A DNA stretch of 64,000 nt, from positions 261,578,001 through 261,642,000 of the forward strand of contig OZ024740.1 of assembly GCA_964016885.1 (NCBI GenBank). Reading direction: 5' to 3'. The position numbers and the translations under genes are program-made. Origin of the DNA: Eledone cirrhosa. Lineage: Eukaryota. Under the pieces are notes generated by a model, which worked only from the letters and a program-made list of their open reading frames with translations, searched no databases and was not told where the DNA came from. Of the stretch, positions 15,113 to 63,836 are shown one piece after another. Position 1 is the stretch's first letter, and each line of letters starts with the position of its first letter.

Positions 15113-15261
15113 TTTCTATATTAATATATCTATATATATATATATATAAGTTGAAAAAAATGAAAACGAAATTTCATTTCTCACTCTTAGTATGGCACTT
15201 ACTTAAATGTAAGTATGCATGCATACGTACATACATATATGTATACAGACGTACAGTAGCA

Positions 15262-15309
<48 letters not shown>

Positions 15310-15483
15310 TATATATACACATATGCATACAGGTACACATACATATATGCACGCATCAGTTTAGCCGACGTTTATTATAACGCCTGCTTTGTTCGTTTGT
15401 TTGTCAACAGATCGAACAGCCTGAATTTATGCCATACGGTGTTAAGGCAACCACGTCACCTTTTTGTTCAACACTGACACAGG

Positions 15484-15528
15484 AACGATGTACTAGTTTC
15501 AAGCTTGTTAGCTATCATCAGCACCGTT
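15484..15528 (-). ncRNA. Hammerhead ribozyme, array unit 1
   Basis: Minus: aacggtg-CTGATGA-tagctaacaagctt-GAAA-ctaGTA-catcgtt; 7-bp stem I, AGCT/AGCT stem II, palindromic ACTAGT stem III. Confidence 0.85.
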
Positions 15529-15561
15529 TACCCATCTGCCAGATAGTTGAACGTTCGAAAG

Positions 15562-15609
15562 TATATACTTTCCTTATGAAAATTAACGGCTGAGCAGCCT
15601 AATTTGCAT
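15562..15609 (-). promoter_or_regulatory. Octamer + PSE-like + TATA cassette upstream of the HHR (repeated in each complete unit)
   Basis: Minus: ATGCAAAT-taggctgctcagccgttaattttcataaggaaag(34 nt)-TATATA; the same architecture occurs at 46883-46930 and 52175-52223. Confidence 0.4.
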
Positions 15610-15765
15610 ATTGAGTGAGTTAAATCGGTCAGGCATACCGAAAACGATAAGTTGAAAAAAATGAAAACGAAATTTCATTCCTCACTCTTAGTATGGCACT
15701 TACTTAAATGTAAGTATGCATGCATACGTACATACATATATGTATACAGACGTACAGTAGCACGC

Positions 15766-15798
<33 letters not shown>

Positions 15799-15972
15799 TA
15801 TATATACACATATGCATACAGGTACACATACATATATGCACGCATCAGTTTAGCCGACGTTTATTATAACGCCTGCTTTGTTCGTTTGTTTGTCAACAAA
15901 TCGAACAGCCTGAATTTATGCCATACGGTGTTAAGGCAACCACGTCACCTTTTTGTTCAACACTGACACAGG

Positions 15973-16017
15973 AACGATGTACTAGTTTCAAGCTTGTTAG
16001 CTATCATCAGCACCGTT
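15973..16017 (-). ncRNA. Hammerhead ribozyme, array unit 2
   Basis: Identical to 15484-15528. Confidence 0.85.
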
Positions 16018-16254
16018 TACCCATCTGCCAGATAGTTGAACGTTCGAAAGTATATACTTTCCTTATGAAAATTAACGGCTGAGCAGCCTAATTTGCATAT
16101 TGAGTGAGTTAAATCGGTCAGGCATACCGAAAACGATAAGTTGAAAAAAATGAAAACGAAATTTCATTTCTCACTCTTAGTATGGCACTTACTTAAATGT
16201 AAGTATGCATGCATACGTACATACATATATGTATACAGACGTACAGTAGCACGC

Positions 16255-16289
<35 letters not shown>

Positions 16290-16463
16290 TATATATACAC
16301 ATATGCATACAGGTACACATACATATATGCACGCATCAGTTTAGCCGACGTTTATTATAACGCCTGCTTTGTTCGTTTGTTTGTCAACAAATCGAACAGC
16401 CTGAATTTATGCCATACGGTGTTAAGGCAACCACGTCACCTTTTTGTTCAACACTGACACAGG

Positions 16464-16508
16464 AACGATGTACTAGTTTCAAGCTTGTTAGCTATCATCA
16501 GCACCGTT
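16464..16508 (-). ncRNA. Hammerhead ribozyme, array unit 3
   Basis: Identical to 15484-15528. Confidence 0.85.
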
Positions 16509-16742
16509 TACCCATCTGCCAGATAGTTGAACGTTCGAAAGTATATACTTTCCTTATGAAAATTAACGGCTGAGCAGCCTAATTTGCATATTGAGTGAGT
16601 TAAATCGGTCAGGCATACCGAAAACGATAAGTTGAAAAAAATGAAAACGAAATTTCATTTCTCACTCTTAGTATGGCACTTACTTAAATGTAAGTATGCA
16701 TGCATACGTACATACATATATGTATACAGACGTACAGTAGCA

Positions 16743-16782
<40 letters not shown>

Positions 16783-16956
16783 TATATATACACATATGCA
16801 TACAGGTACACATACATATATGCACGCATCAGTTTAGCCGACGTTTATTATAACGCCTGCTTTGTTCGTTTGTTTGTCAACAAATCGAACAGCCTGAATT
16901 TATGCCATACGGTGTTAAGGCAACCACGTCACCTTTTTGTTCAACACTGACACAGG

Positions 16957-17001
16957 AACGATGTACTAGTTTCAAGCTTGTTAGCTATCATCAGCACCGT
17001 T
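16957..17001 (-). ncRNA. Hammerhead ribozyme, array unit 4
   Basis: Identical to 15484-15528. Confidence 0.85.
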
Positions 17002-17220
17002 TACCCATCTGCCAGATAGTTGAACGTTCGAAAGTATATACTTTCCTTATGAAAATTAACGGCTGAGCAGCCTAATTTGCATATTGAGTGAGTTAAATCG
17101 GTCAGGCATACCGAAAACGATAAGTTGAAAAAATGAAAACGAAATTTCATTTCTCACTCTTAGTATGGCACTTACTTAAATGTAAGTATGCATGCATACG
17201 TACATACATATATGTATACA

Positions 17221-17421
17221 GACCATTTCTGTTGGAAGCTCCCAGAGCTTCCAACAGAAATGGTCGCATTCTTTAAGGGTATGTCAATATTTATTTATAA
17301 AACTGGTCTATATTATATTTTAGCTGATGAAAGCAAACCATAATTTAACTTGGTGTCCTTGAAATATGTATAATGAAATAAATATGGTTTTATAAATATA
17401 GTTTCCATTTGTTAATATAGC

Positions 17422-17503: not shown

Positions 17504-18053
17504 CGGCGATGAATTTGTTTTGCGAGGTTTTTTATATGAAATCGTGTGTCGAAACAAATATTGTTATACTTGGGGAGGGTCATATTTGTGTAATATTGCC
17601 AGAATTAATAACAGAACACACTCAGTTTGGTTGGTTTTCGCTTCTCGCTTCTGTGTCTTTTATATCGGTAATCTAACTTACTCGGTCCTCAATGTTGCCA
17701 TTGTCTGACCAACGGTCAACAATAATACTGATACAATATAGACACAAACACATATATATAGTTTATCATAAATCTTTCGTTGCACATCTGCAACATCGTC
17801 AGTGGTGTTATTGTTTCCTCCTGTTGTATTGTATGTCTACGCCATTTTTATTCAGTCTGTCTATATATTTATTTATTTATTTGCTTGTTTGTTTATTTTA
17901 TTTTGTCTTCTTTGCGCATGCGTTTGCGTGTGTGTATAGTGTTTTGTTTGCTGTGTGATGGGTGACTAGTGTGTGTTTATGTGCTTGTTGTTATTGTGCT
18001 TGTGTATGTATTTATTTATTTATTTATTTATTTATTTTATCTTATTTACTTAT

Positions 18054-22621: not shown

Positions 22622-22888
<267 letters not shown>

Positions 22889-23389: not shown

Positions 23390-23620
23390 ATGGATGGTGG
23401 TGGTGGTGGTGGTAGTGGTGGTAATAATGTTGATGGTGGAACTGATAATGATGATGATGATGATGATATTGAAGAAGAAGAAGAAGAAGAAGAAGAAGAA
23501 GAAGAAGAAGAAGAAGAAGAAGAAGAAGAGCAGCAATTGCAACATCAACGCAACAACGGCAACAACAATAACAGCAGCTGCAACAACAACACGACAAATG
23601 TTAAGAGCAACCGCCGCCGC

Positions 23621-23675
<55 letters not shown>

Positions 23676-24282
23676 TTTACGACACCGACAGAAAGAACAA
23701 CAAACAATACAATGACAATTATCACAGTTGTAGCCACAAGAACAATAATAGTGGCGGCGACAACAACAACAACAACAACAACAATAACAACGATAAATGT
23801 TAACAACAGCAGCTACAACAATAACAACAACACTAACGACAACAGCAATAACAGCAGCTGCAACGACAATGGCGACAACAACGGCAACAACAAAAGTAAC
23901 AACAACAACAACAACGACAACAATAGAAATAACAACAACAAAAGCAACAACAATAACAACTTCAACTGTTAACAGCAGCTGCAACAATAATAACAACAAC
24001 AACAACAGGAATAACAACAACAACAACAACGATAAGAACAGACACAATAGTTTTCTAATTAACAGAAATAGCCGTGAGGTTAGTGAATAGAAACGACTAA
24101 TGGATGGTAAGGTATTGGAAATATGTTAGAGTGGAGTATTGGACTGTAAGGTCTGGTCTTGGGGGAACATGAAGAGCTTGTAAAACTATAAGATACAACA
24201 ACAACAGCAACAGCAACAACAGCAACATCAACAACAACAACAACAACAGCAACAGCAGCAACAACTAATACATCAACAACAA

Positions 24283-24314
<32 letters not shown>

Positions 24315-24366
24315 ACAACAACAACAACAACAGCAACAGCAGCAACAACTAATACATCAACAACAA

Positions 24367-24398
<32 letters not shown>

Positions 24399-24447
24399 AC
24401 AACAACAACAACAACAGCAACAGCAGCAACAACTAATACATCAACAA

Positions 24448-24479
<32 letters not shown>

Positions 24480-24564
24480 ACAACAACAACAACAACAACA
24501 ACAACAGCAGCAACAGCAACAACAGCACAACAGCAGCAACAGCAGCAACAACAACAACAACAGC

Positions 24565-24628
<64 letters not shown>

Positions 24629-25317
24629 GCAGCAACAACAGCAGCAACAGCAGCAACAGCAGCAACAGCAACATCAACAGCAGCAACAGCAACATCAACA
24701 ACAACAACATCAACAACAACAACAGCAACAACAACAACAGCAACAACAGCAGCAACAACAACAACAACAGCAACAACAACAACAACAGCAACAACAACAA
24801 CAACAACAGCAACAACAACAACAGCAACAACAACAACAACAACAGCAAAAACAACAGCAACAGCAACAACAACAACAACAACAACAACAGCAGCAACAGC
24901 AACAACAACAACAGCAACAACAACAACAACAGCACAACAACAACAGCAACAACAGCAGCAACAACAACAACAACAGCAACAACAACAGCAACAGCAGCAA
25001 CAACAACAACAACAGCAGCAACAACTACTTCATCAACAACAACAACAACAACAACAGCAACAGTAGCAACAACAGCAACAAGAGCAACAGCAACAACAAC
25101 AACAACAGCAGCAACAGCAACAACAGTACAACAGCAACAACAACAACAGCAACAGCAGCAGCAACAGCAACAACAACAACAAGAGCAACAACAACAACAA
25201 CAGCAACAACAGCAGCAACAGCAACAACAACAACAACAACAACAACAGCAGCAACAGCAACAACAACAACAGCAACAACAGCAGCAACAACAACAACAGC
25301 AACAGCAGCAACAGCAA

Positions 25318-25349
<32 letters not shown>

Positions 25350-25442
25350 ACAACAGCAAGAACTACTACATCAACAACAACAACAACAACAACAGCAACA
25401 ATAAGAACAACAGCAACAACAGCAACAACAACAACAACAACA

Positions 25443-25473
<31 letters not shown>

Positions 25474-25485
25474 TAGCAACAGCAA

Positions 25486-25517
<32 letters not shown>

Positions 25518-25574
25518 GCAACAACAACAACAGCAACAGCACAACAGCAACACCAACAACAGCAACAACAACAA

Positions 25575-25605
<31 letters not shown>

Positions 25606-25884
25606 AACAACAGCAAAAAACAACAACAAAAACAATAACAACAACAACAGCAACAACAGCAACAACAACAACAACAGCAACAACAGCAACAACAGCAAAA
25701 ACAACAACAGCAACAACAACAACAACAACAACAGCAACAACAACAACAGCAACAACAACAACAGCAACAACAGCAGCAACAACAACAACAACAACAACAA
25801 CAGCAACATCAACAACAACAACAACAACAACAGCAACAGCAACAACAACAGCAGCAACAACAGCAACAACAACAGCAGCAACAA

Positions 25885-25961
<77 letters not shown>

Positions 25962-25983
25962 GCAACAACAACAACAGCAACAA

Positions 25984-26021
<38 letters not shown>

Positions 26022-26252
26022 GCAACAACAACAACAACAGCAACAACAACAGCAGCAACAACAACTACAACAACAACAACAACAAAAGCAACAGCAACAA
26101 CAACAGCAACAGCAACAACAACAACAGCAACAACAGCACCAGCAACAACTACTACATCAACAACAACAACAACATCAACAACAGCAACAACAACAACAGC
26201 AGCAGCAGCAATAGCAACAACAACAACAACAACAAGAGCAACAAGAGCAATA

Positions 26253-26314
<62 letters not shown>

Positions 26315-26350
26315 AACATCAACATCAAAATCAACAACAATATCAACAAC
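23390..26350. repeat. Compound trinucleotide tracts (GGT, GAT, GAA, then ~2.5 kb of CAA/CAG, then TAC)
   Basis: Seen directly; phase slips are present, so not a clean poly-Q ORF. Confidence 0.95.
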
Positions 26351-26354
26351 ATGA

Positions 26355-27987: not shown

Positions 27988-30900
27988 TTACAGATATATA
28001 CTCAGAGTAGGCCCATTCACTCGGGCCATTCTTGCTTCTCTCACCCATCTTTCAACAAAATACTGGGAAGAGAGCACTTCTCTCTCTACTCTGATTTTCC
28101 TTTTCAAATGAAATTTGAAAAAGTTAATCAGGGCATCACCGAAGAGGTAAGTGCTCGTCTTCAGCCCTTTCAAACGTGTCCACCATACTATCTCTTTCGC
28201 CATGGCCACCAGACAGATAAAAACTGCCTGCCCTTCCCGGCTAAAGGAGGAGGGCGGGGTAATCCTCACGATGGACTCAGATGATAGCCGGATCCGTCCT
28301 ACACACGACAGCAGGTGTTCGACATAAACCCACAAGTCAGCAATTTTCGGACACTGGACGAGTGCGTGCAGGTCGGTTTCGTCGCCCTGCGCGCATCTCG
28401 GACATGCCCGGCTGACGGCACCTCCATGCCTGTAGAGTTTATCCCAAACTGGCTAGGCTCCTCGGTAGCACTGCCAGGCCAGAGATTTCTGGAAGTTGTC
28501 CATAGGCCCTGGCCCGAAAATTCTTCCGAAGAGATTGGCTAGTTGATTTTCGTCGACGCCTAGAGTTTCCCCAAGTACGTCGTCGCTCTTCCCCTCCACT
28601 AATCCTCTATAGAACGCCGAGGTGGAGTTTCCACCGATCACATTGCCCGATTGGTTGAGGGCTGTGAGCGCCTGAAGACATTCCGTCTCCAGGCGCTCCC
28701 TCTCGGTCTTCGCTTGACCCAGGACTGCAGCTCCGTCAAGGAAACGAGCTGGGGAAATACGTGTCTAGCAAACGGCGACCACACCTGATCACCGTCGAGG
28801 AAGAGGTGGAGATGTCGTAGCCTGAGCGCGTGCCTGCGCATCATCAGCCACGGCATGCCCAGCCCTCCACGTAGCGGGTGTTGACAACAGATTCGACCGC
28901 CTGACCATCGGAGCGCGTCCCTTCGACAAAAAGCGAAAGAGCAAACGCTCCAGCGCAGTCGGGCGGGGATTAGGACAAGGTACGACGGTCAGGAGGTAGC
29001 AGATGACGGACGCGATGTACGCGTTAGCCACCTCCGCTCGACCTTTCAGGGATAGCTTCCTCTCAGCCCATTTCTGGGTGAGAGAAGCCACCCTGCTCGT
29101 CACCTCGTCCCAGTTTTTGTCCGTCTGGAGGTCCGGATCGAACCAGACCCCTAGCAATTTTACCGGTCCGTCCGTCCAGCGCCCGACGACGCTGTTGGAC
29201 GGCATGGACCTGCCTCTCCAGGTGCCGAGCTGCAGGCCCACTGACTTTTCCTGGTTAATCATTGCTCCTGTCACCGCTTCGTATTCTCTTAGTGTAGTCC
29301 CGATCGCCGCGATGTGTTTGGCGTTCGACACCACAACGGTGACATCGTCCGCATATGCTGACACGGATCTTCCGCATCCTAGTTCGCGCGGGACGCCCTT
29401 CAACGCCTCCAGTTTGTGCAGTAATGGCTCGAGAATCAATACGTACAAGAGGGACGAGAGGGGACATCCTTGGCGGACCGAGCGCATGATGTTGAACGGT
29501 TCTGAAAGGTGACCGTTCACTATCAACACAGAGCAGATGTCGCTGTGCATGGCAGCGATCCAGCCTCTGAAGACGGGCCCATGCCAGCCGCCTTCAGGAC
29601 TGCCGCTAGGTAACGATGGTCGACTCTATCGAAGGCTTTGGACTGATCTAAATTGATCAAGGACCCACCCGTGCCAGGTTTCCTAGCTACGCTCTCTCCG
29701 ATGTATCGCATGAGGTGGAGGTTGTCGTGGATGGATCTGTCGGGAATGGCGTATGTCTGCTCCTCTCCCAGCAGACCAACAACGACAAGCGCCAACCTCT
29801 TTGCTAGCACCTTGGCCAAAATCTTGAACTCTGTGTTTAGCAGAGTTATGGGCCTGAAATTATCTATGTTATCCCCCTTGTTCGGATCCTTTCTCAACAG
29901 CGCCACCACTCCTCGGTTCACAGAGCTGGGAATTCTCCTGTTCTGTTGCCAGTTGCAATAGACGTCCGCCAAGAGGCCTCCGAACAAGTCTGGCATCTGT
30001 ACGTAAAGTTCATAGGGCAGACCATCCAAACCAGGCAATTTATCCCTTGTGCAGCCACTCATTGCCTCCCGTACTTCAGCGGCTGTTATCGGCTTTTCGC
30101 AACACTCCGCCTCAGTGGCCGAGAGCCGCGGCAGTCTGTCGAGGTAGACACTAAAGTCCATCCCTCGACCCGGCCCACCGCTGCCCCCGAACAGCTGAGC
30201 GATGTGTCGCTGAAAAGCTTCACACATTTGCCCGGGATCGAGTAGCATGCGCCCGTCGTGGTCCACCAAAGACCGGATCGTGGCTTTGTTGCCACGACGC
30301 GCCTCCGCCACTCGGGCCCATTGAACGGCTTTCGTCCCCTTGTGTCTGAGAGCACGCACCCTTGCTCTGACAACGCAGCCTTCGTGCTTTGCATTGAAGA
30401 ATTGGTCAAGGGCCAATTTCGCCGCAAGCACGTCGGTCGCAATGCCTTTGCTAAGCGCCTCGTCTAATTTTCTAATTAATTCTCCCTCTGCTCTATTTTT
30501 CTCCATTGCTAAAGCCTTACTAAATCTAATCGATTCTATTATAATCGCTCTTTTCAGAGCAAACCACCACTTGTTGTTGACGATGGCCCCCGTCAACGCC
30601 CGCTTAACTAGTTCGCTAATCCGGTCTCTGTAGGCCTTGCACGCTGGTAAGGACACGTTTAGCTTCCAGTAGCCGGGTCCTCGTCTATGAAGCCTATCTA
30701 AGTCAAGCACACAGATCACGAGTTTGTGGTCCGTGTAGCTGACTATCTTGAATTGTGGACAGCCTATGCTAGACCTATCTATTTCCCTACAAAATACTCT
30801 ATCTAGATATGATCCGGGTGACCCTATGCGGTTTGTCCATGTCCACATTGGCACATTCGGGAAATCCAATCGGTCAGACAATCGGTCAGACAGTTCAAAA

Positions 30901-31413
30901 CGCCTGAGCAGGTTGGTGAGGCTCTTGCACCCTCCCTCCTCTATCCGTTAAAACCACACAGTCTCAGCGTGCATCTAACACCCCGTTCCAGTCGCCCACT
31001 AACACTAAAGAGCGAGACGTTCCAAGAAAGGTCTCCAGACGCCGGAAGAAATCAGGCCGCCCTGCTCCTGTCGGGGCATAGACGGCCAATAACCTGAAAG
31101 CTTGCCCGTCTCCGCTGGTCACGTCCAGCACCACCAACTTACCTTCTGGGTCCAGGAAGATGGCCCGTATGCCGAGATCCAAACCTCTCCGTAAAAGCAC
31201 AGCAACTCCTCCCCCCGATCCAGGACGGTTGGGAGATGCGTACACATCGTAGCCGCCGAAGATCGGTGCGAAGGCCCGTGCTTCGGAGATTCTGGTCTCG
31301 CTGATGGCCACTACATCTATGTTTAGTGACCTGAGGTCGTTGAGCAGGTGACCCTGCTTCCATGACGACCCCAAGCCACGCGCATTTATACTGCCTATTC
31401 TGAGTGAGGTCAT
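27988..31413 (-). pseudogene. Tx1/L1 ORF2 (APE endonuclease + RT + C-terminal Cys domain), frameshifted
   Basis: SINARGL, VAISET, AVYAP, GDWN, SYLDRVF, TDHK, YWKLN, PGLDGLPYELY, FRPITLLN, DQSKAFDRVDH, VRQGCPLS, AYADD. Confidence 0.92.
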
Positions 31414-34779: not shown

Positions 34780-37700
34780 AAAAACAACAAAAAGAAAACC
34801 CCGTGACCAAGAAATACCGGGATGGCGGCCGGCGGGGAATAGCCGTGTCTCTAGGGGAGAACGACCCCTCTAGTCTTGGTTGACACTCGTTCTAGAAGTG
34901 GTAACACGAAATGATTACCCCTTGGCGGATAAGGATAAAACGCGACAAAATAAAGTAAATGTCTAATGATAAAATCTCATACCGGATCGGCCGTCACCCG
35001 GGTAAAAAAGGGCCGCGTCCCCCAGAGAGGAACCAGACTGGGGTCGAAAAATCAGCTAATGGTTCAAACCTTCCCATCACTTCAGAGCTGGAGACCTCCC
35101 ATAACCGGAATACTCCTACTGTTGGCCCTCCATGCTCACCACCAAAGAATCCAAAGAAAAAGAGAGAAAAATGGTCAAGGGAAGATAATAAAGAAGTCCT
35201 TGAGGCTTTCTACACTGCCATGTACTACCCATCAAATACATCGAACACAGAACAGACATATATCAACTGGAAAAAGAAACATCCCGAAAACAGAGGCTAT
35301 ATTGACAGTAACAAACTAGCCAATATACGAAGAAATATTGTAAGAAAAAAGTTACTAACTGATATAGAAATTGATCAGATCAAGCTATTAGCACAAAGTC
35401 AGCGAAGGGAAAATGAAACATGTGTCAGTGAAAACGAGGTAAACTGTAACACTTCGAACCCCAGGGTTGGGGCGGAATCACTGGCAACAGAACAAATTAA
35501 AGAAAGGATCGAAAAAGAGGAGGGAGTGCATGCTCAGGATGAAACTCCAAATGAAAATAATGAGATCGTAAATGATAAAGAAATGAATGAGAATGAACTT
35601 GCCAACTTGAAGGATGAAATTACGATCGAATGGATGAAAATGAAAGAATCTGACATGAGGCAACGAGACACCCTCCCTAAGATCCAAAACTCCAAACAGA
35701 ACCAAAAGATAATACACAAGACTAACATTATCATCACAAACAAACTAAACATTACTGATATAAATCATCTCTATTATGCATCGGCTAAAGTCACCACTCA
35801 CTTATGTGGAGTGAAGATGAAAAAACAAAGGAATTCCCACAAGAAATCTACTTGGCAAGAGAACATCAATCGCCAAATAAACCTTCTCCGATCTGACATA
35901 GAAATTTTAACAAACTATAAAGTAGGTGAACATGTTAAACAAACTAAACTTAGAAAATTGAAAAAAAAGTACAGTATAAAATCAACATGTGACATAGACA
36001 TGCTGATAGAAATAATCAAGCAAAAAGTGTCGGCCAAAGCTGCTCGTATAAGGCGCTTTGAAAAACGATCTAGATTCTATAAGGACAATAATATGTTCAA
36101 AAACAACCAAAGAAACTTCTACAGAAAAATTGGTAAGTCAACAATAACTGCTAAATCAATACCACCCAAGGAGGAAGTGCAAGAATTCTGGGAAAAGATC
36201 TGGGCCGAAGAAAAAGTTCATAACATACATACCCCATGGATAGACAGACAAATGAAAGATACAGCTCACCTTGAGGAACAAACATGGGAAAATATAACAG
36301 TTGAACAGTTGCGCTTGGCTCTAAGAAAAACCAGCAAATGGAAATCCCCAGGAAAAGTCAAAATACAAAACTTTTAGATAAATGCCTTCACAGAGTCTCA
36401 TGAGCTGTTAGCCCAACTTTACAATGAAATAGTTAAGGAGCCAGAAAAGATACCATCATGGCTAGTTAACGGCATTACATTCCTGCTTCCGAAGAATGAT
36501 GAGACAAACAATCCCAAAAATTACAGACCGATAACTTGCTTGACCACAATGTATAAAATTTTAACATCAGTCCTAACTGAATACACATATGACCACCTGA
36601 TAACAAATGACCTATTTCCCATTGAGCAGAAAGGGTGTAAACGAGGCTCATATGGCTGTAACAAAATGATACTGGAAGATTGTCATAATAGACACAAAAA
36701 TCTATCGATTGCTTGGATAGATTATAAAAAAGCATTCGATAGTTTGCCACACAGTTGGATTGAAAAATGTTTAGAGATTTTCAAAATATCCCCCGTTGTC
36801 AGGAGGTTTTTGTCATTCAGTATGAAGACATGGAAAACGACACTCCTTTTGAACAGTGAAACAAAATCACTGAAAACTGGAGAAGTTAATATTAATTGTG
36901 GAATTTTTCAGGGTGACTCTTTATCACCGCTTTTATTCTGCATCGCACTTATACCATTAAGTAAAATGCTCAATGAAACAAAACATGGATATAAAGTCTA
37001 TGACAAAACCATTAATCACCTGTTCTACATGGATGACCTGAAACTATTTGCAAAAAATGATGAACAATTGCAAGGGCTATTATCCACTGTGAAGCAGTTC
37101 AGTGATGACATTAAAATGGAGTTTGGACTAGATAAATGCGCCAAAGCAACGTTCACCAGAGGAAAGCTGCTGAAGAGTTCAGACATTAATCTTGATCGGG
37201 GGAACGTGATAAGAGAACTTGATCAAGAAAAAACTTACAAATATCTAGGTGTTTGTGAAGGAGACGGAATCAAGCACTCGACAATGAGGGAAAGGATAAG
37301 GAAGGAATGTTACCGCAGAGTAAGAGCAATCTTAAGAACGGAATTGAATGCAAGGAATAGGATCGATGCCATAAATACGCTTGCCATACCAGTAGTAACC
37401 TACAGTTACAATGTCATCAACTGGTCAAGCACAGAGATCCGTAGGCTCGATACAAAATTTCGAAAATTCTTAACCATGCACAGAATGCATCACCCTAAGG
37501 CAGATATAGATAGAATATATCTCCCTAGGAAAGAAGGAGGACGTGGGTTAATCCAGTTAGAAATTGCGTTGAAAACTGCAACAATTGGATTATCTACATA
37601 TCTAAGGGAATCACATGATTGGATGATCAAACTCGTTTTGAAACACGAAAGCATCAAAAGATCATATTCCATTACAAAAGATGCACACAGATACAGTAAT

Positions 37701-38745
37701 GGACTACAAATTTCAGAAGTTCCATTTACTGCTGAAATGGAAAACACAGAAAAAGCAAAGCAGGTAAAAGTAACTGCAAAGAAAGAACTGCTACAGAAAC
37801 AGGCTAAGAAATGGCAAGAAAAGCCTCTGTATGGAAAATACCCAGAGCGAGCTAACAATCCTGATGTTGACAAAACTTTAACCCATCAGTGGTTGGCATC
37901 CTCTGGACTGAAATCGGAGACTGAAGGACTGATTATATCGGCACAAGATCAGTGTCTGCCAACAAAAAATTACCAAGCCAACATAATAAAAAATGGGTGC
38001 AGCCCATTATGCCGTGTATGCAAAAAACAACCAGAGACCATTGACCATATAATTTCAATGTGCAGTCCTATAGCTCCAACCGAATACCTAAACAGGCATG
38101 ACAGAGCTGCACAATACATACATTGGATAATGTGTAAGCATTTTGACCTGCCCCATCAAAAGAATTGGTGGGAGAATCAACCACCTCCCATACTTGAAAA
38201 AGATCACATCTCAGTCTTGTGGAACTTTAGCATCCAAATAGACCGAAAAATAGATGCAAATAGACCTGATATAATATTGAAGGACTTTCAAAAGAGGGTA
38301 TGCCTGCTAATTGATATGTCTGTTCCAATAGACAAGAATGTATCTATAAAAACATTTGAAAAATTGAGCAAGTATAAGGACCTGGAGATAGAAATTGGAA
38401 AAATGTGGAAATTGAGAACTAAAACAATACCAGTGGTTGTAGGCGCTCTGGGAATGATACCTAAGGGGTCTAATGACTACTTATCGCAAATCCCAGGAAA
38501 CCCGCGTATAGGAGAAATACAAAAGATAGTACTAATGGGAACTGCCCATATACTAAGGAAGATTCTGTCAATATAAGTACATCACAAGTCTAAACACTAA
38601 AGATGCATGTGTGAATATGTATGTTCTTTCTTGAACATGGCGGACCTTGTTGTCTCTTGAGGTCACTGGTTGAGACTTGGTGATAACTCGTATGAACATA
38701 AAGCAAGATAAATGCAACTGTAATAATAATAATAATAATAATAAT
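34780..38745 (+). mobile_element. Near-complete R4/Dong-type LINE with (TAA)n tail
   Basis: Single long RT-REL frame, structured GC-rich 5' leader, 3' UTR ending in (TAA)n at 38721-38747. Confidence 0.88.
34959..38576 (+). pseudogene. R4/Dong RT + CCHC + PD-(D/E)xK restriction-like endonuclease; one in-frame TAG (36375) at a normally Trp codon
   Basis: ORFs 34959-36377 and 36540-38576 share a frame; NYRPITCL, IDYKKAFDS, GIFQGDSLSP, YMDDLKL, CRVC..ETIDHI..C, RHD, NRPDI, IDMS, EKLSKY. Confidence 0.92.
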
Positions 38746-46509: not shown

Positions 46510-47264
46510 CAGTATGTACACGTACATACATATATGTATACAGACGTACACTAGTATGTATATACATACATACAAGCACACACATATATATATATGTACG
46601 TATGGGTCTACAGAACATTTATTATAATGCTCGGTTTGTTTGTAAACAAACAGCCCGAATTATTAGCCGTACAGTGTTCGGGAACCATCGTCGCCATTTT
46701 GTTCAACACTGACGTACATATATATATATATGTATGCATGTATGTATATAGATATACATACTACTTTACGTCTGTATACATATATGTATGTACGTATACA
46801 CACTTATATTTAAGTATCAGCCGTACTAAGAGTTTTTTTCATTTATCGTTTTCGGTACGCCCGGCCGACTAACTCCCTCGATATGCAAATTAGGCTACTC
46901 AGCCGTTAATATGCATAAGGAAAGTATATACTTTCAAACGTTCAATCAATTGACAGGAAGGTATACGGTGCCGATGACAGCTAATAAGCTAGAAACTAGT
47001 TCATCGTTCCTTTGTTAGTGTTGAACAAAATGGCAACGATGGTTACCGAACACTGTACGGCTAATAATTCGGGCTGTTTGTTTACAAACAAACCGAGCAT
47101 TATAATAAATGTTCGGTAAACCCATACGTACATATACATATGTGTACATGTATGTATATACATACTAGTGTACGTCTGTATACATATATGTATGTACGTA
47201 TACATACTCTTAGTACGGCTGATACTTAAATATAAGTGAGAAATGAAATTTAATTTTTTCCAAT

Positions 47265-47265
<1 letters not shown>
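46510..47265 (+). mobile_element. Diverged monomer of the family D retrozyme-like unit with inverted upstream part; HHR core mutated (CCGATGA, 46965-47007)
   Basis: Collinear with the reverse complement of the 15.1-17.2 kb unit, including octamer and TATA; 46510-46710 inverts ~47020-47200. Confidence 0.75.
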
Positions 47266-52080: not shown

Positions 52081-52174
52081 CATAATACATATTGTACATA
52101 TTATATAAAGCTATGCTTGAAGCGAAATCCTATTTCTTTTTTATTATAAGTTGAGCCAACTTATGCAGCTTCAT

Positions 52175-52317
52175 ATGCAAATGAGATTAATCACCTCATT
52201 AACACAGACGAGAAAAGTATATATTCTCGCCTGTCTTCTAGTCCAGTAGTCGCAAGCGGCGTGAGGGACCGTCCTGACGAAGGCCAGTTAAGCCTGAAAT
52301 GCATATAAGGTTGTCCC
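52175..52317 (+). ncRNA. Octamer-TATA cassette followed by a degenerate HHR (family H)
   Basis: ATGCAAAT(52175)-35 nt-TATATA(52218); CTGACGA-aggc cagttaa gcct-GAAA-tgcata; stem I only distal GGGAC/GTCCC. Confidence 0.5.
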
Positions 52318-52534
52318 CCTTGCTTCTGCTGGACATCACCAGAGGGTGTTAGCCCCCGGTGTTTGCATAGCTACGGCATCCTAAAACCGTATTTCTTTGT
52401 AGATACGAAATATTTATACACACACAACACACATATATATATAGTAATAATAATAAATTTGAAGACTAAAATCCAAAGTGGGCTCGATAAGGATAAATAT
52501 ATATCAAATATATAAGAACCGTAGAGCAAATATT

Positions 52535-52667
52535 TATTAAAATAACAGATCAAAGTTTAAGCAAAGAATCGCTGCTTTCACCCTTAACGGGATCTTCTGA
52601 AACTCAGTTTCAGAAGATCCCGTTAAGGGTGAAAGCAGCGATTCTTTGCTTAAACTTTAATCTGCTA

Positions 52668-52722: not shown

Positions 52723-53523
52723 AATATAAATTAGCGAGAATCGTTTTCAGCTCAGGAATTAACGAAAATCAACGTCCGATATGTGTGGCAAGCGCTCGAT
52801 GAATCATATGAATCAGAGCTACAACATACGTTAAGGGCCGAACACACTGAGATGATGGTTAAACATATCATCCTCACAGCCAAAACAAAACGACCAAGTA
52901 ATTCGGGTCAAACAATAAAAATATGTGTTGATACTTTCCCGGACCCTGGACTGATGGTAAAATCCAGTATTGGTTTCTGCGACTCCAAATCAGGTACTGT
53001 CCGCCTACATAAAGAATGTTGGGCTTCTGGTGAGATGATGAACAAGGCAGTCGTGTTATCAACGGGTTTTGCTCCAAGATGCTATAGGTAGTGTGGCTAT
53101 TACTGACCCCTCGTGGGATTCAGCAAGGGAGGTAACACCTCTATTAAGCGAATGATTCAGTTGTGTATTATTGCGAGAATGCAAAATATCACAAATCGAA
53201 TAAAGCTCTCGACAGAATGGTTAAATATAACAGAGCTATTCAACAGTCAAATATATATATATATGTATATATATTAAAATAACCGATTAAAGTTTAAGCA
53301 AAGAATCGCTGCTTTCACCCTTAACGGAATCTTCTGAAACTAAAAAAGAAAATCTGTGGACGCAGAAGTAAATATTTCGAAAAACGTTGCAACCGAAGGA
53401 AAACAGGAAGACGATACTTTGGTTCGTGAAGACGTTCCCTGACAATGAACGGAAAAAAGCGAGGATAATACGTCGTTATGTGGTGCGTAAGAACAACTAC
53501 ACGCAAAAACAAAACCACGTTTA

Positions 53524-56500
53524 TCTATTTATTAATTTCAAGAACGTCAGTATTCCGTGTGTCATAATCCTCAATTATCATTGGTTCATAGGTTTCAAAC
53601 GACTCCGCCCACCTCAACGACGCCAAGCTGAAATTAATATGCATAATGCCAATGAGGGAGTGAGAGGGGAGAGTGTGAACGCTGTGTTCAATAACTATTA
53701 ACATGTGTGCGTCTGTATGTACGTGCACGTATGTTTATGTGTGTGTGCGTGCGTGCAGCGTTCCACAGAAAGTAAAAACTATCAACACGCGTGAGTGTGT
53801 GTGTGTGTAAGTTTGCGTGCGTGTGCGCGTTTCCATGCGTGTATGTCTGTGGTGTTCCACAATCGCCACGCAGTTTATCTGTCTGTGTGCCTGTATGTCA
53901 GTCTAACATACACAGAGTTGTGAAGGGATAAAATAGGGACCTTTCTTTACATTGACAGTCATCTTTTATATTTATTATTGAGTCATTTTTGGCCAATTGC
54001 TCGAAATGAATACTGATAATAAAAGCAATTCGACCTTATCAAACAGTGAACTACAGCGGCGACGAAGTGCAGCCAGCAATGAAGAAAAACGGGCCGAACA
54101 GCGCCATCGGAACGCCGAACTTCGGAGGCGAAGACGTGCCGCCATGACTGAAGAGGAGCTGGCTGAACAACGCCAACGAAACACTGGAGTCAAGCAGCGA
54201 CGGCTTGTTGCGATGGTTGAAGACGAACTGGCTGAGCATCATCAGCAGATGGCCAGAATTCAGCAGCAACGGCGTGCTGCGATGGATGAAGAGGAGCTGG
54301 CTGAACAGCACCAGCGCAATACAGAAGTTCAGAGAATGTGTCGCCAAAGTGCTCCTCATTCCAGTAAAGAGGCTAGAAGGCGAACGAATGATATTAAAAA
54401 TGGATCATGGCAACCGTGTCATTTTCAGATTGGTGGACGAGCAGAGTGTCCACATTGTGGAGCATTGCTTTGGAGGCACGAAAAGACGTGGACCACAATG
54501 TGCTGTCATAAAGGAGCAGTTCAAATAGAACCCTTGCGAATGCCGGATGATGAGGAGTCACCGGAGTTTAAAAGACTGAGTATGTGAGGTGATCAAGGAG
54601 ACCGAGGTAGATTACTGCGCAAATATTCGCGGCAAATTAACAATTCATTAGCTTTAGCATCGCAGAGAGTTAGTGAGATGTTTGAGAGTGGAGCATGGCA
54701 ACCGAATGTAGTCATTCAAGGCCGTTTGTATCATTGTGTCTGGGGTAATACCTGAGGTAATTTAAAAGTTACCCCAGGAGAGAGGTCTCGATTCGCTCAA
54801 ATTTACGTTAACGATCCAGACTATAGTGAATCGGAGAAGGATATCAGGATCGGTTGGATGAAGTTGCCGGGAAATATAACTGAACTTGAACGGCAAAGGT
54901 TAAGTGATTTGATCCGTGATTTGCAATCATGGCTTAGACATGGCTTATGTTATGGATTTCATGTTGGTGGCTGAACTGCAAAATGTTCAGCAGCAAACAT
55001 TGGTGATTAAGGCTGACGCAGTGCCAAGGAATCAAAACGAACAGTGATATAATGCCCCTGAAGGATTTCGTGAAGTTGCTGTGTTGATGGACGATAAGCC
55101 TGGATCGAGAGATATCGCCCTCAATCGCAGAGATGGTTGTCTCAAAACTATCAATGAGTCAAATAGGGCATACGATCCATTACATTATGTTCTTTTATTC
55201 CCAAAAGGTGATAATGGATGGAACATGTCTGTTCAATTAGATGATCATGGGAGGTGGCAATAGACATAATAATTCGATTCGGGACTTTTACGCGTTCCAT
55301 TTGAACGAGAGGAATCAACAGAGAAATGCACTATTTCAAGCCAGCAGATTGTTCCAGGAATACTGTTGTATGGCATTCGCAAAGATCGAAAATCAAAGGC
55401 TAAATTATATAGCTACACATCAGCAACATATCAGAGCTGAATTGTATAATAATATACAGGATGCGATAACAGCCGATGATGCCAATTACAAGCAAATTGG
55501 TTGGCGCATCATTTTACCATCGTCGTTCATATATGAACATTCGCTATCAGGATGCAATGGCTATTGTCAGAAAGTTTGGAAAGCCAGATTTGTTTATAAC
55601 GGTTACATGCAATCCTGAATGGACTGATATTAAGGATGCACTTTTGCCAGGACAACAGCCAAAGGACCATCCTGATATTGTGGCAAGAGTATTCAAAGGA
55701 TATCTGAAAAAGATCATGGATGATGTGGAAAAAGAGGGAATCTTTGGAGGTATAGTTGCTTTTACATACGTAATTGAATTCCCAAAAAGAGGATTGCCAC
55801 ATGGACATTTGCTGATCATTTTACATAGAGATTGCAAATTGAGATGTGCTGAGGATGTCGACAGCATTGTGTGTGCTGAACTGCCGGAGAATGAGGCACT
55901 ACGCAACTTGGTGGCAAAGTCAATGGCGCACAACCAATGCGGAGTGGCAAATCGGAAAGCGCCTTGCATGAAAAATGGCCAATGCAGTAAGCACTTTCCG
56001 AAATCTTTTGTCACGAATACTTCCTGGAACGATGGAGATGCTCATCCCCATACAGAAGACGGTCGCCTGCAGATGGCGGTTTGGTCGAAAATGTAAACGG
56101 TCGACAGGTTACAAATCAATGGGTTGTGCCATACAATCCATATTTGATTATAAAATATCGTTGTCATATTAATGTGGAAATTTGTAGCTCAGTGAAAGCT
56201 TGCAAATATCTATTCAAATATGTTTACAAAGGTCATGATCGGGCAATGATCAATGTCAGGAATGAGGAAGCGAACCAAGGAGATGAAGTTGGCAGGTTCC
56301 AGGATGTTCGCTCGATTGGATCTAGCGAAGCTTGCTGGAGATTGTTCGATTTTGATCTCAATGAACGCAAACCCAGCGTCCAGAAACTGACGATTCACTT
56401 AGAGAATAGTCAAATGCTCTGTTTTCAGGACACTAGAAGAGGTGTCGAAAGAATTGCTAACGCACCACCTCCTAAGACGGAATTGACTGAGTGGTTCAAG

Positions 56501-62859: not shown

Positions 62860-63836
62860 ATAATAAACATTTTGAAGACCCAATCGCTATAGAATAGAAT
62901 ACGTCACGTATTACAATTTGAGATTCTCGATAAAAGCAAGGGAAGTAATCTACGCGTTTCATTCTTATTAGAAATCATCAGGACTACATATCCAATGCTT
63001 TTATCGAGAACGACACAGCTAGAGACTTATAGAATACTTAGCTGTGTACAGGAACTGGTTTGAAAGAGCGGTAGCCGGTCCGGCAGCGTGACGTATTCTA
63101 TTCTATAGCGATTGGGTCTTCAAAATGTTTATTATAAACATACAGAATATTTTCGAATATTCTATGTTTGTCTTCACATATATATCGCTATTTCAGAGCA
63201 TTAAATCCAAATTCTAATTTCTGCCGGACCGGCTACCGCTCTTTCAAACCAGTTCCTGTACACAGCTAAGTATTCTATAAGTCTCTAGCTGTGTCGTTCT
63301 CGATAAAAACATTGGATATGTAGTCCTGATGATTTCTAATAAGAATGAAACGCGTAGATTACTTCCCTTGCTTTTATCGAGAATCTCAAATTGTAATACG
63401 TGACGTATTCTATTCTATAGCGATTGGGTCTTCAAAATGTTTATTATAAACATACAGAATATTTTCGAATATTCTATGTTTGTCTTCACATATATATCGC
63501 TATTTCAGAGCATTAAATCCAAATTCTAATTTCTGCCGGACCGGCTACCGCTCTTTCAAACCAGTTCCTGTACACAGCTAAGTATTCTATAAGTCTCTAG
63601 CTGTGTCGTTCTCGATAAAAGCATTGGATATGTAGTCCTGATGATTTCTAATAAGAATGAAACGCGTAGATTACTTCCCTTGCTTTTATCGAGAATCTCA
63701 AATTGTAATACGTGACGTATTCTATTCTATAGCGATTGGGTCTTCAAAATGTTTATTATAAACATACAGAATATTTTCGAATATTCTATGTTTGTCTTCA
63801 CATATATATCGCTATTTCAGAGCATTAAATCCAAAT
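62860..63836 (+). mobile_element. 312-bp HHR tandem array (2.4 direct units + inverted partial unit; retrozyme-like, family E)
   Basis: Units at 63087, 63399, 63711; HHRs 63320-63362(+), 63632-63674(+), 62945-62987(-): gtagtc-CTGATGA-tttctaataagaat-GAAA-cgcGTA-gattac. Confidence 0.85.

Follow-up and report, generated by a model that had tools for sequence, protein, structure and literature searches.

Newt satellite 2, a tandem hammerhead repeat studied by Coats, Zhang and Epstein in 1994 and by Cremisi et al. in 1992, reportedly uses an octamer plus a proximal sequence element (PSE), and the promoter of the schistosome satellite Sm-alpha is of the tRNA-like internal type. Circular RNAs of retrozymes occur abundantly in every animal tissue tested. 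A promoter that lies upstream is normally left behind in retrotransposition. The available sections of the literature describe newt satellite 2 as a hammerhead repeat with an snRNA promoter for RNA polymerase II (Pol II) (PMC2220036, PMC6765202, PMC7229834) and give Sm-alpha an RNA polymerase III (Pol III) promoter (PMC2220036). For animal retrozymes, the accessible text of a 2020 review states that they do not seem to harbour promoters (PMC7761336), and the Discussion of the study of metazoan non-LTR retrozymes by Cervera and de la Pena (2020) names none (PMC7229834).

Here we analyse a 64,000-nucleotide stretch of the genome of Eledone cirrhosa (the window). An earlier note on this DNA had described, upstream of the hammerheads of a family D and of an otherwise dissimilar element (our family E; all family letters other than D are labels coined in the present analysis), an octamer-TATA cassette that might be a built-in promoter of the U6/Pol III type. 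As far as the available text on newt satellite 2 goes, its resemblance to D and E is functional: it too is a tandem hammerhead repeat (~330 bp in the newt) with an internal snRNA-type promoter. However, it belongs to another phylum and has another sequence, whereas here a TATA box is present, the boxes are those of this host, and several families carry three different host layouts. In Sm-alpha, as here, a promoter and then a hammerhead follow each other in tandem units, and the upstream unit is described as driving the next (PMC6765202, accessible sections), but its promoter is a Pol III promoter and the one found here is of the upstream snRNA type. According to the sections of PMC7229834 available to us, metazoan non-LTR retrozymes share with the present elements short non-coding tandems, type I hammerheads, a strongly self-paired monomer, and co-occurrence with Penelope-like elements. 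In contrast, those retrozymes are described without promoters, their units usually measure 170-400 nt (the D unit is longer, 491 bp; that of family C has 312 bp), and their hammerheads differ from those found here, which are of the minimal, short-stem-III kind. Penelope pseudo-LTRs also show a minimal hammerhead, a palindromic stem III loop, partial tandems, inverted 5' copies, and a promoter within the repeat, but the units here have no coding frame. The plant LTR retrozyme NbRZ1 likewise has its own promoter in the text available (PMC9695139, PMC12029980); it differs in being an LTR element with a type III hammerhead, and its promoter is apparently not of the snRNA type.

Results

A box-PSE-TATA cassette upstream of hammerheads

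The window is part of contig 1 of the source genome (3.0 Gb), which has both spliceosomal RNAs and Penelope-like elements. On re-check, all coordinates and spacings reported for the octamer-TATA-hammerhead arrangement held, in the four D units, in the copy at 46883-46930, and in the element at 52175. The minus-strand octamers of the D array (Table 1) start at 15609, 16098, 16589, and 17082, and in each array unit the octamer is followed by a 34-nt spacer, TATATA, and then 40 nt to the hammerhead core. The D copy at 46883-46930 has the cassette as in the array and a core with one change (CCGATGA), and in the E element (52175-52223) the spacer is 35 nt and the distance from TATA to the core 50 nt. 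A pattern of box, TCASC, and TATA matched the window six times and none of 100 shuffles; since four of these matches are tandem units, they represent three insertions. The diverged copy was said to keep the cassette while its flanks drift, and by hand count on the alignment subfamilies D1 and D2 differ at 3/48 cassette positions, against 10/40 downstream and 7/31 upstream (17/71 in the flanks combined). Of the spacer motif that the two families were said to share, TCA(G/C)C stood, but TTAA turned out to be a variant of the E copy in the window, the other listed E copies having TTTA.

A seventh octamer of the window, at 38254, was rejected as a cassette, as it sits within a LINE reverse-transcriptase frame. 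At its 5' end (17222-17420), the D array meets a perfect hairpin and an opposite-strand hammerhead repeat of the family found at 9139; this junction possibly reflects a template switch or a nested insertion.

Table 1. Coordinates of the features discussed, in positions of the window
Feature	Position	Strand	Remarks
Family D tandem array	15146..17223	-	491-bp unit, 4.2 copies; 3' end adjoins (TA)n tract
12-bp host box TATGCAAATKAG	15599..15610	-	includes octamer 15609-15602
PSE-like core, begins TCAGC	15582..15593	-	26 nt before TATA, ~-56; aligned with host U1/U2 and U3
TATA box of D	15562..15567	-	predicted +1 at ~15537 if at -30 as in host genes
Minimal type I hammerhead	15484..15528	-	predicted cleavage after 15491 (GUA); 2-bp stem III, palindromic loop
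T7 run	15154..15160	-	8 nt before element 3' end; internal in upstream units
Second D subfamily copy, ~1.3 units	46511..47265	+	inverted 5' segment, mutated core; boundaries approximate, by eye
Family E copy	52085..52420	+	boundaries approximate; core from 52274
Boxes of the E copy		+	box 52174-52185; TCACC 52191-52195; TATA 52218-52223
Distal-element-like 12-mer of the E copy	52311-52322	+	
Penelope-like RT with C-terminal GIY-YIG, open frame of 682 aa	19752..21800	+	candidate mobilising class; outside cassette
Family C tandem hammerhead repeat, no box	63087..63836	+	312-bp unit; core 63638
Elements of family C		+	exact distal element 63359-63370 (-259); CCAGT 63561-63565 (-57); TATAAG 63588-63593 (-30)

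The hammerhead and its monomer

The sequence downstream of the cassette has the CUGANGA...GAAA...NUH core and three stems of a type I hammerhead, open at stem I. A stem III of two pairs with a palindromic loop is the form reported for Penelope elements in the available text of PMC6765202. In an alignment of 20 copies that represent about ten families and subfamilies, 84.6% of the 260 stem cells were paired. Covariation reached 0.643, whereas shuffles gave 0.227 and 0 of 500 reached the observed value; these tests favour a D-like structure somewhat, the structure having been drawn from the D copy. Changes on both sides were seen in 12 of the 13 hammerhead pairs, and slid controls gave 30-37% pairing and a covariation of at most 0.152. 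The Rfam model HH9 scored the D ribozyme at 18.5 bits (E-value 0.026), under its gathering score of 52, as is expected for minimal hammerhead variants; the scan of the whole window returned no hammerhead among the 150 of 160 matches listed, only microsatellite and hairpin noise.

No frame of at least 180 aa was found in the D array, whose units are non-coding. As in retrozymes, each tandem unit bears a type I hammerhead and the monomer is highly self-paired, with a predicted fold of -171.5 kcal/mol (z -10.2), to which a microsatellite hairpin contributes part. In this folding, the monomer stem starts ~13 nt upstream of the predicted +1; because it takes in these bases, the model suggests that the RNA under selection includes promoter sequence.

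The cassette is present in high copy

We found 23,126 genome matches to TATGCAAATKAG-N26-40-TATAWA, a count in which some TATA registers appear twice, against 726 for the reversed pattern; positions were obtained for the first 100. We took 98 distinct copies at loci chosen by patterns of this kind. A hammerhead core (at most one mismatch, stem II required) followed the cassette in 69 of them, compared with 0/98 upstream control windows. By family, cores were found in 51/59 D, 11/14 E, 3/6 G, 3/6 H, and 1/1 K copies, and in none of the F (0/5), D3 (0/2), or other copies (0/5); the F and D3 cores are degenerate, yet can be aligned with those of other families. The spacing proved to be conserved over these further copies and families, the box-TATA spacer being 34 nt in 59/59 D copies and 35 nt in 13/14 E copies.

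We counted 13 occurrences of the exact 11-mer in 60 evenly spaced, unselected 10-kb loci; judged by eye, 10 of them were in these families, 9 had a hammerhead-like core, and 3 were unrelated. A ribozyme-first search of the same 60 loci yielded seven D cores. In four of them the exact 11-mer was in its place, and another had the octamer but TATA deleted. D-type arrays elsewhere have units of 430-490 bp, and E tandems are partial only, with no full one in 305 loci. The box-PSE-TATA cassette is a real, high-copy, promoter-like feature of this genome.

Host snRNA-type promoters

For comparison, the host's own genes were assigned to Pol II (U1, U2, U3) or Pol III (U6, U6atac, MRP, 7SK) from other animals, following the accessible part of PMC11892584. 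In the Pol III class (the two best U6 genes, the contig 19 U6 array, the one promoter-bearing U6atac, and MRP), the box or a one-base variant lies at -76 to -78 and TATA at -30, with a spacer of 38-40. 7SK has no box at the usual place; its TCAGT stands at -64. In U3 promoters, a variant of the box is found at -71 to -74, TCA..AATGTA at -54 to -57, and TATA at -31, and their spacer is 34 nt in 8 of 10 promoter-bearing loci and 32 in the other 2; a run of at least five T (T7) follows the gene in one of the ten. Five further U3 hits have no such promoter, and 12 further U6 hits and 7/8 U6atac hits, without promoter, were left out as likely retrocopies. The box was absent in all six U1 types, all four U2 types, and RNase P. 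Instead, all ten U1/U2 promoter types carry TCAGT at -56 to -58 (one TCAAT, one TCAGG), and most a TATA-like stretch at ~-30.

A distal element at -232 to -287 is common to most host classes, and its 12-mer was found in U6, U1, and RNase P promoters and in 0/60 of the evenly spaced 10-kb loci. A search for distal element plus box gave 34 matches, made up of U6 genes, one U13, repeat copies, and unassigned sites; no host gene with a spacer of 34/35 was among the 14 loci listed, and U3 was found separately. The U13 gene (L170; G000:C7, ~10.33 Mb) has the exact box at -75, the distal element, and only T4 at its end, and by its sequence the promoter would be intermediate between the U3 and U6 layouts.

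Some further observations concern these genes. The upstream region of the RNase P gene (L101; G000:C24:12936134-12936474) is U1/U2-like, with a distal element, TCAGT, and no box, which suggests a promoter of the Pol II type; the gene is nonetheless followed by a long T-run. On contig 19, ~30 U6 copies form a tandem array at 31.78-31.84 Mb (G000:C19; L003-L013, L016-L020), several units of which have a ~170-bp insertion between promoter and gene. In the window, an isolated exact match to the distal element, at 53124-53135 (-), lies outside any recognised element.

Layout of the D and E cassettes and choice of polymerase

Host U3, U6/U6atac/MRP, and U1/U2 promoters resemble the elements in the box or its variant, the PSE core, TATA, the distal element, and the matching distances. 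With TATA set at -30, the box falls at -72/-73 in families D, E, F, G, and K, and (T/C)CA(G/C)C at -56/-57, positions of the PSE being read off alignments; in D and E, TCA(G/C)C sits ~26-27 nt before TATA. MAFFT lined up the box and TATA of host U3 with those of D and E, and sequences between the boxes were not alignable in detail between elements and host promoters. As judged from these alignments, the D/E layout is host U3 promoter geometry (box ~-73, 34-nt spacer, TCA core ~-56) together with the U1/U2 position of the PSE. The exact box has C at octamer position 4 in U6, MRP, and U13, and T in U3, so the cassette box is closer to U6 by sequence. D and E thus differ from any one host promoter in combining a U6-exact box with U3 spacing. 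At ~-260, D has no distal element, and E has a 10/12 match to it (hand count over two partial copies).

We also scored the elements against host profiles in an ungapped test that used 300 shuffles for each element and 200 for each host gene, and in which the anchor of one U3 locus was off by 2 nt. Against the U6 class, none of 14 short-spacer representatives rose above z 0.6, and 3/4 H copies reached z 2.7. Against U3, 6/11 sister representatives (D3, F, G, K) reached z 2.2-3.4, and the three window copies gave z -0.3 to 0.7, which is not significant in this crude test.

The 34/35-nt spacer and the PSE core at the U1/U2 position make Pol II likelier than Pol III for D and E, and we consider it probable that the D/E retrozyme units carry a U3-like Pol II promoter that drives multimers. 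The other polymerase would enter with a U6-like type 3 Pol III promoter giving a start-to-oligo-T RNA, in which rare read-through yields the promoter-bearing circles (mixed Pol II/III use included). The 12-bp box and TATA of a U6-type promoter are both present, the exact box and a clean TATA occurring in host U6 and MRP, and in D no run of at least four T, by eye, interrupts the path from the predicted +1 to the terminal T4/T7 cluster. Family H has the U6 spacer of 39 and often T5-T10 just after the ribozyme. Nevertheless, the U6-type spacer of 38-40 nt is found in H only; that of D and E falls 4-5 nt short of those in each of the five Pol III promoter types with a box, and their PSE core stands at the Pol II position. 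Insect Pol III snRNA promoters allow little variation in the PSE-TATA spacing, according to the text available (PMC1761439).

The T-runs bear on the same question. The earlier note had seen oligo-T near the element 3' end as a possible Pol III terminator, and runs are present at both of its sites, the second being T6 at ~47254-47259 in the second D subfamily copy. Comparison did not support the terminator role. At the homologous place upstream of the box, at least five T were found in 6/11 copies, being absent in 3/4 E and 2/3 D3 copies; elements of family D finish 8 nt beyond the run and most of those of family E short of it, and tandem D units continue through it. D and E thus have no conserved oligo-T terminator setting the 3' end, as a U6-type unit would. 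Termination there would exclude the promoter from the RNA, yet the sampled copies hold promoter, ribozyme, and often the previous unit's tail. With the T-run missing in 5/11 copies and 3' ends past it (D) or mostly before it (E), we regard a Pol III promoter for D and E as unlikely.

Taken together, the proposal that the elements may carry their own snRNA-type promoter is supported in its general part, with a match to host snRNA-gene elements in many hammerhead families. The resemblance includes the PSE, the box being found in U6, U6atac, and MRP and the TCA core as in U1, U2, and U3. For D and E, the U6/Pol III type is not retained, as they have the spacing of host U3 and their PSE core at the U1/U2 position. 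The octamer is indeed closer than in vertebrate U6 promoters, and is no anomaly here, the host's own promoters having the box at -73 to -78.

Sister families and probable common descent

When aligned with a box-bearing family (locus L241), family C matches apart from the box, where 12 bp are cleanly missing. By sequence, its layout is the full U1 geometry, and its distal 12-mer overlaps the 3' strand of the previous unit's hammerhead stem I. The box is not essential to the superfamily, because family C has amplified without it. Family C is young, has an inverted part at ~62860-63090, and forms further arrays in L068, L157, and L165.

In family H, the spacer is 39 in 5/6 copies and in most of 20 further loci, and T5-T10 often lies ~15-25 nt after the ribozyme; a search by eye for a distal element in H gave nothing convincing. 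H is the best candidate, from these sequence features, for a true Pol III retrozyme. It is an older repeat (loci L087, L088, L148, L152, L206-L225).

The two families of the earlier note had been called unrelated. In the alignment, the hammerhead families are collinear from box to stem extension, and D and E are alike upstream of the box too. D and E look like distant relatives, and this collinearity and upstream similarity make common descent likelier than independent capture. Tentatively, and as an idea that we hold to be possible but doubtful, a single superfamily may have re-tuned a captured host snRNA promoter into a U3-like form (D/E/F/G/K), a U6-like Pol III form (H), and a U1-like form (C, by exact loss of the box), with the 3' strand of stem I serving as the next unit's distal element.

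Descent from one ancestor also admits a passive reading, in which the cassette is an inherited relic or RNA-level signal and today's copies are transcribed by read-through from neighbours. Collinear families that probably had one ancestor are not independent captures, the box-TATA pattern largely guided the choice of hits, the box is lost in family C, and read-through is what the accessible text of the 2020 review proposes for retrozymes (PMC7761336). But box, PSE core, TATA, and spacing have been kept through the turnover of stems and flanks (12/13 pairs changed; 3/48 versus 17/71 differences), and all three layouts fit host gene classes to within 1-2 nt. Moreover, C retains PSE and TATA, and at the U1 distance it carries the exact distal element, a 12-mer seen in 0/60 unselected loci. 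We find this passive reading improbable.

Penelope-like elements and other repeats of the window

Inverted 5' segments and (TA)n targets are Penelope hallmarks in the sections available of PMC8557442, and both an inverted 5' segment and a (TA)n target were seen in the D insertions of the window. The 682-aa RT/GIY-YIG frame lies between inverted hammerhead-bearing repeats, with hammerheads at 17802 (-) and 22050 (+); searches of Pfam and PDB with it gave nothing significant. A second Penelope-like frame, 9369-11596 (+), is broken by stops and is flanked by a hammerhead family at 9139 and 13119, which also occurs at 17324, 49891, 51614, and 48051. No box was found within 330 nt upstream in four other hammerhead families of the window (8429/15068, 9139 etc., 22050 etc., 45275 etc.), two of which adjoin Penelope-like frames. 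The cassette is therefore not general to hammerhead repeats here.

Pfam matches also marked LINE-type RT frames and a Helitron fragment at 34959-38576 (+), 29523-30947 (-), and 55470-56096 (+). Positions 1-4118 and 23620-26351 are taken up by long repeats of the GGTGGA(A/G)GT and CAA types, in which both strands have long open frames. Perfect long hairpins at 7631-7712, 14784-14859, 22720-22846, and 52552-52658 gave spurious microRNA hits and are likely inverted junctions of Penelope-type insertions.

Discussion

Host-matched boxes at host spacing make it likely that these repeats drive their own transcription rather than depend on read-through. Under a U3-like Pol II promoter, the cassette would recruit SNAPc and Pol II, with a start ~16-26 nt before the ribozyme core. 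We infer that the polymerase would pass the T-runs into the next unit, where two successive hammerheads would release a monomer bearing the next unit's promoter. The released monomer would circularise, and a Penelope-like RT may then copy it for more than one turn into (TA)n tracts; copying of this kind would let new copies regain a promoter upstream of the ribozyme. Tandem and inverted insertions span both the promoter and the cleavage site.

How far this is new differs between its parts. The principle, as far as the available text tells, is already known from newt satellite 2. The earlier note knew of no snRNA-type promoter described for retrozymes, and the accessible sections of the 2020 review name none (PMC7761336), but newt satellite 2 and Sm-alpha are precedents. 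What appears to be new is that one superfamily has three layouts matched to the host, and that the distal element overlaps stem I. Our literature search, with most subscription papers outside its reach, found no work joining hammerhead, proximal sequence element, and retrotransposition, and literature on retrozyme promoters, cephalopod/octopus hammerheads, and satellite 2 yielded no description of the present system.

The layouts of the host U6, U3, and U1 promoters are now defined and could serve as small-RNA expression tools, and the series of spacings, from 34/35 to 39 to a deleted box, is natural material for testing polymerase choice. A constitutive snRNA-type promoter in each unit would explain retrozyme expression, for which the review's model is promoterless read-through, and agreement with newt satellite 2 would make promoter plus hammerhead a recurring design. 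Hammerhead multimers and circles offer a way round the loss of upstream promoters in retrotransposition. If one superfamily did re-tune a captured promoter into three layouts, the overlap of stem I and distal element would hold units to a length of about 300 bp, mobile elements would have in ribozyme circles a general means of carrying upstream snRNA promoters, a Pol III one among them, and tens of thousands of cassette sites would compete with the host snRNA genes for SNAPc.
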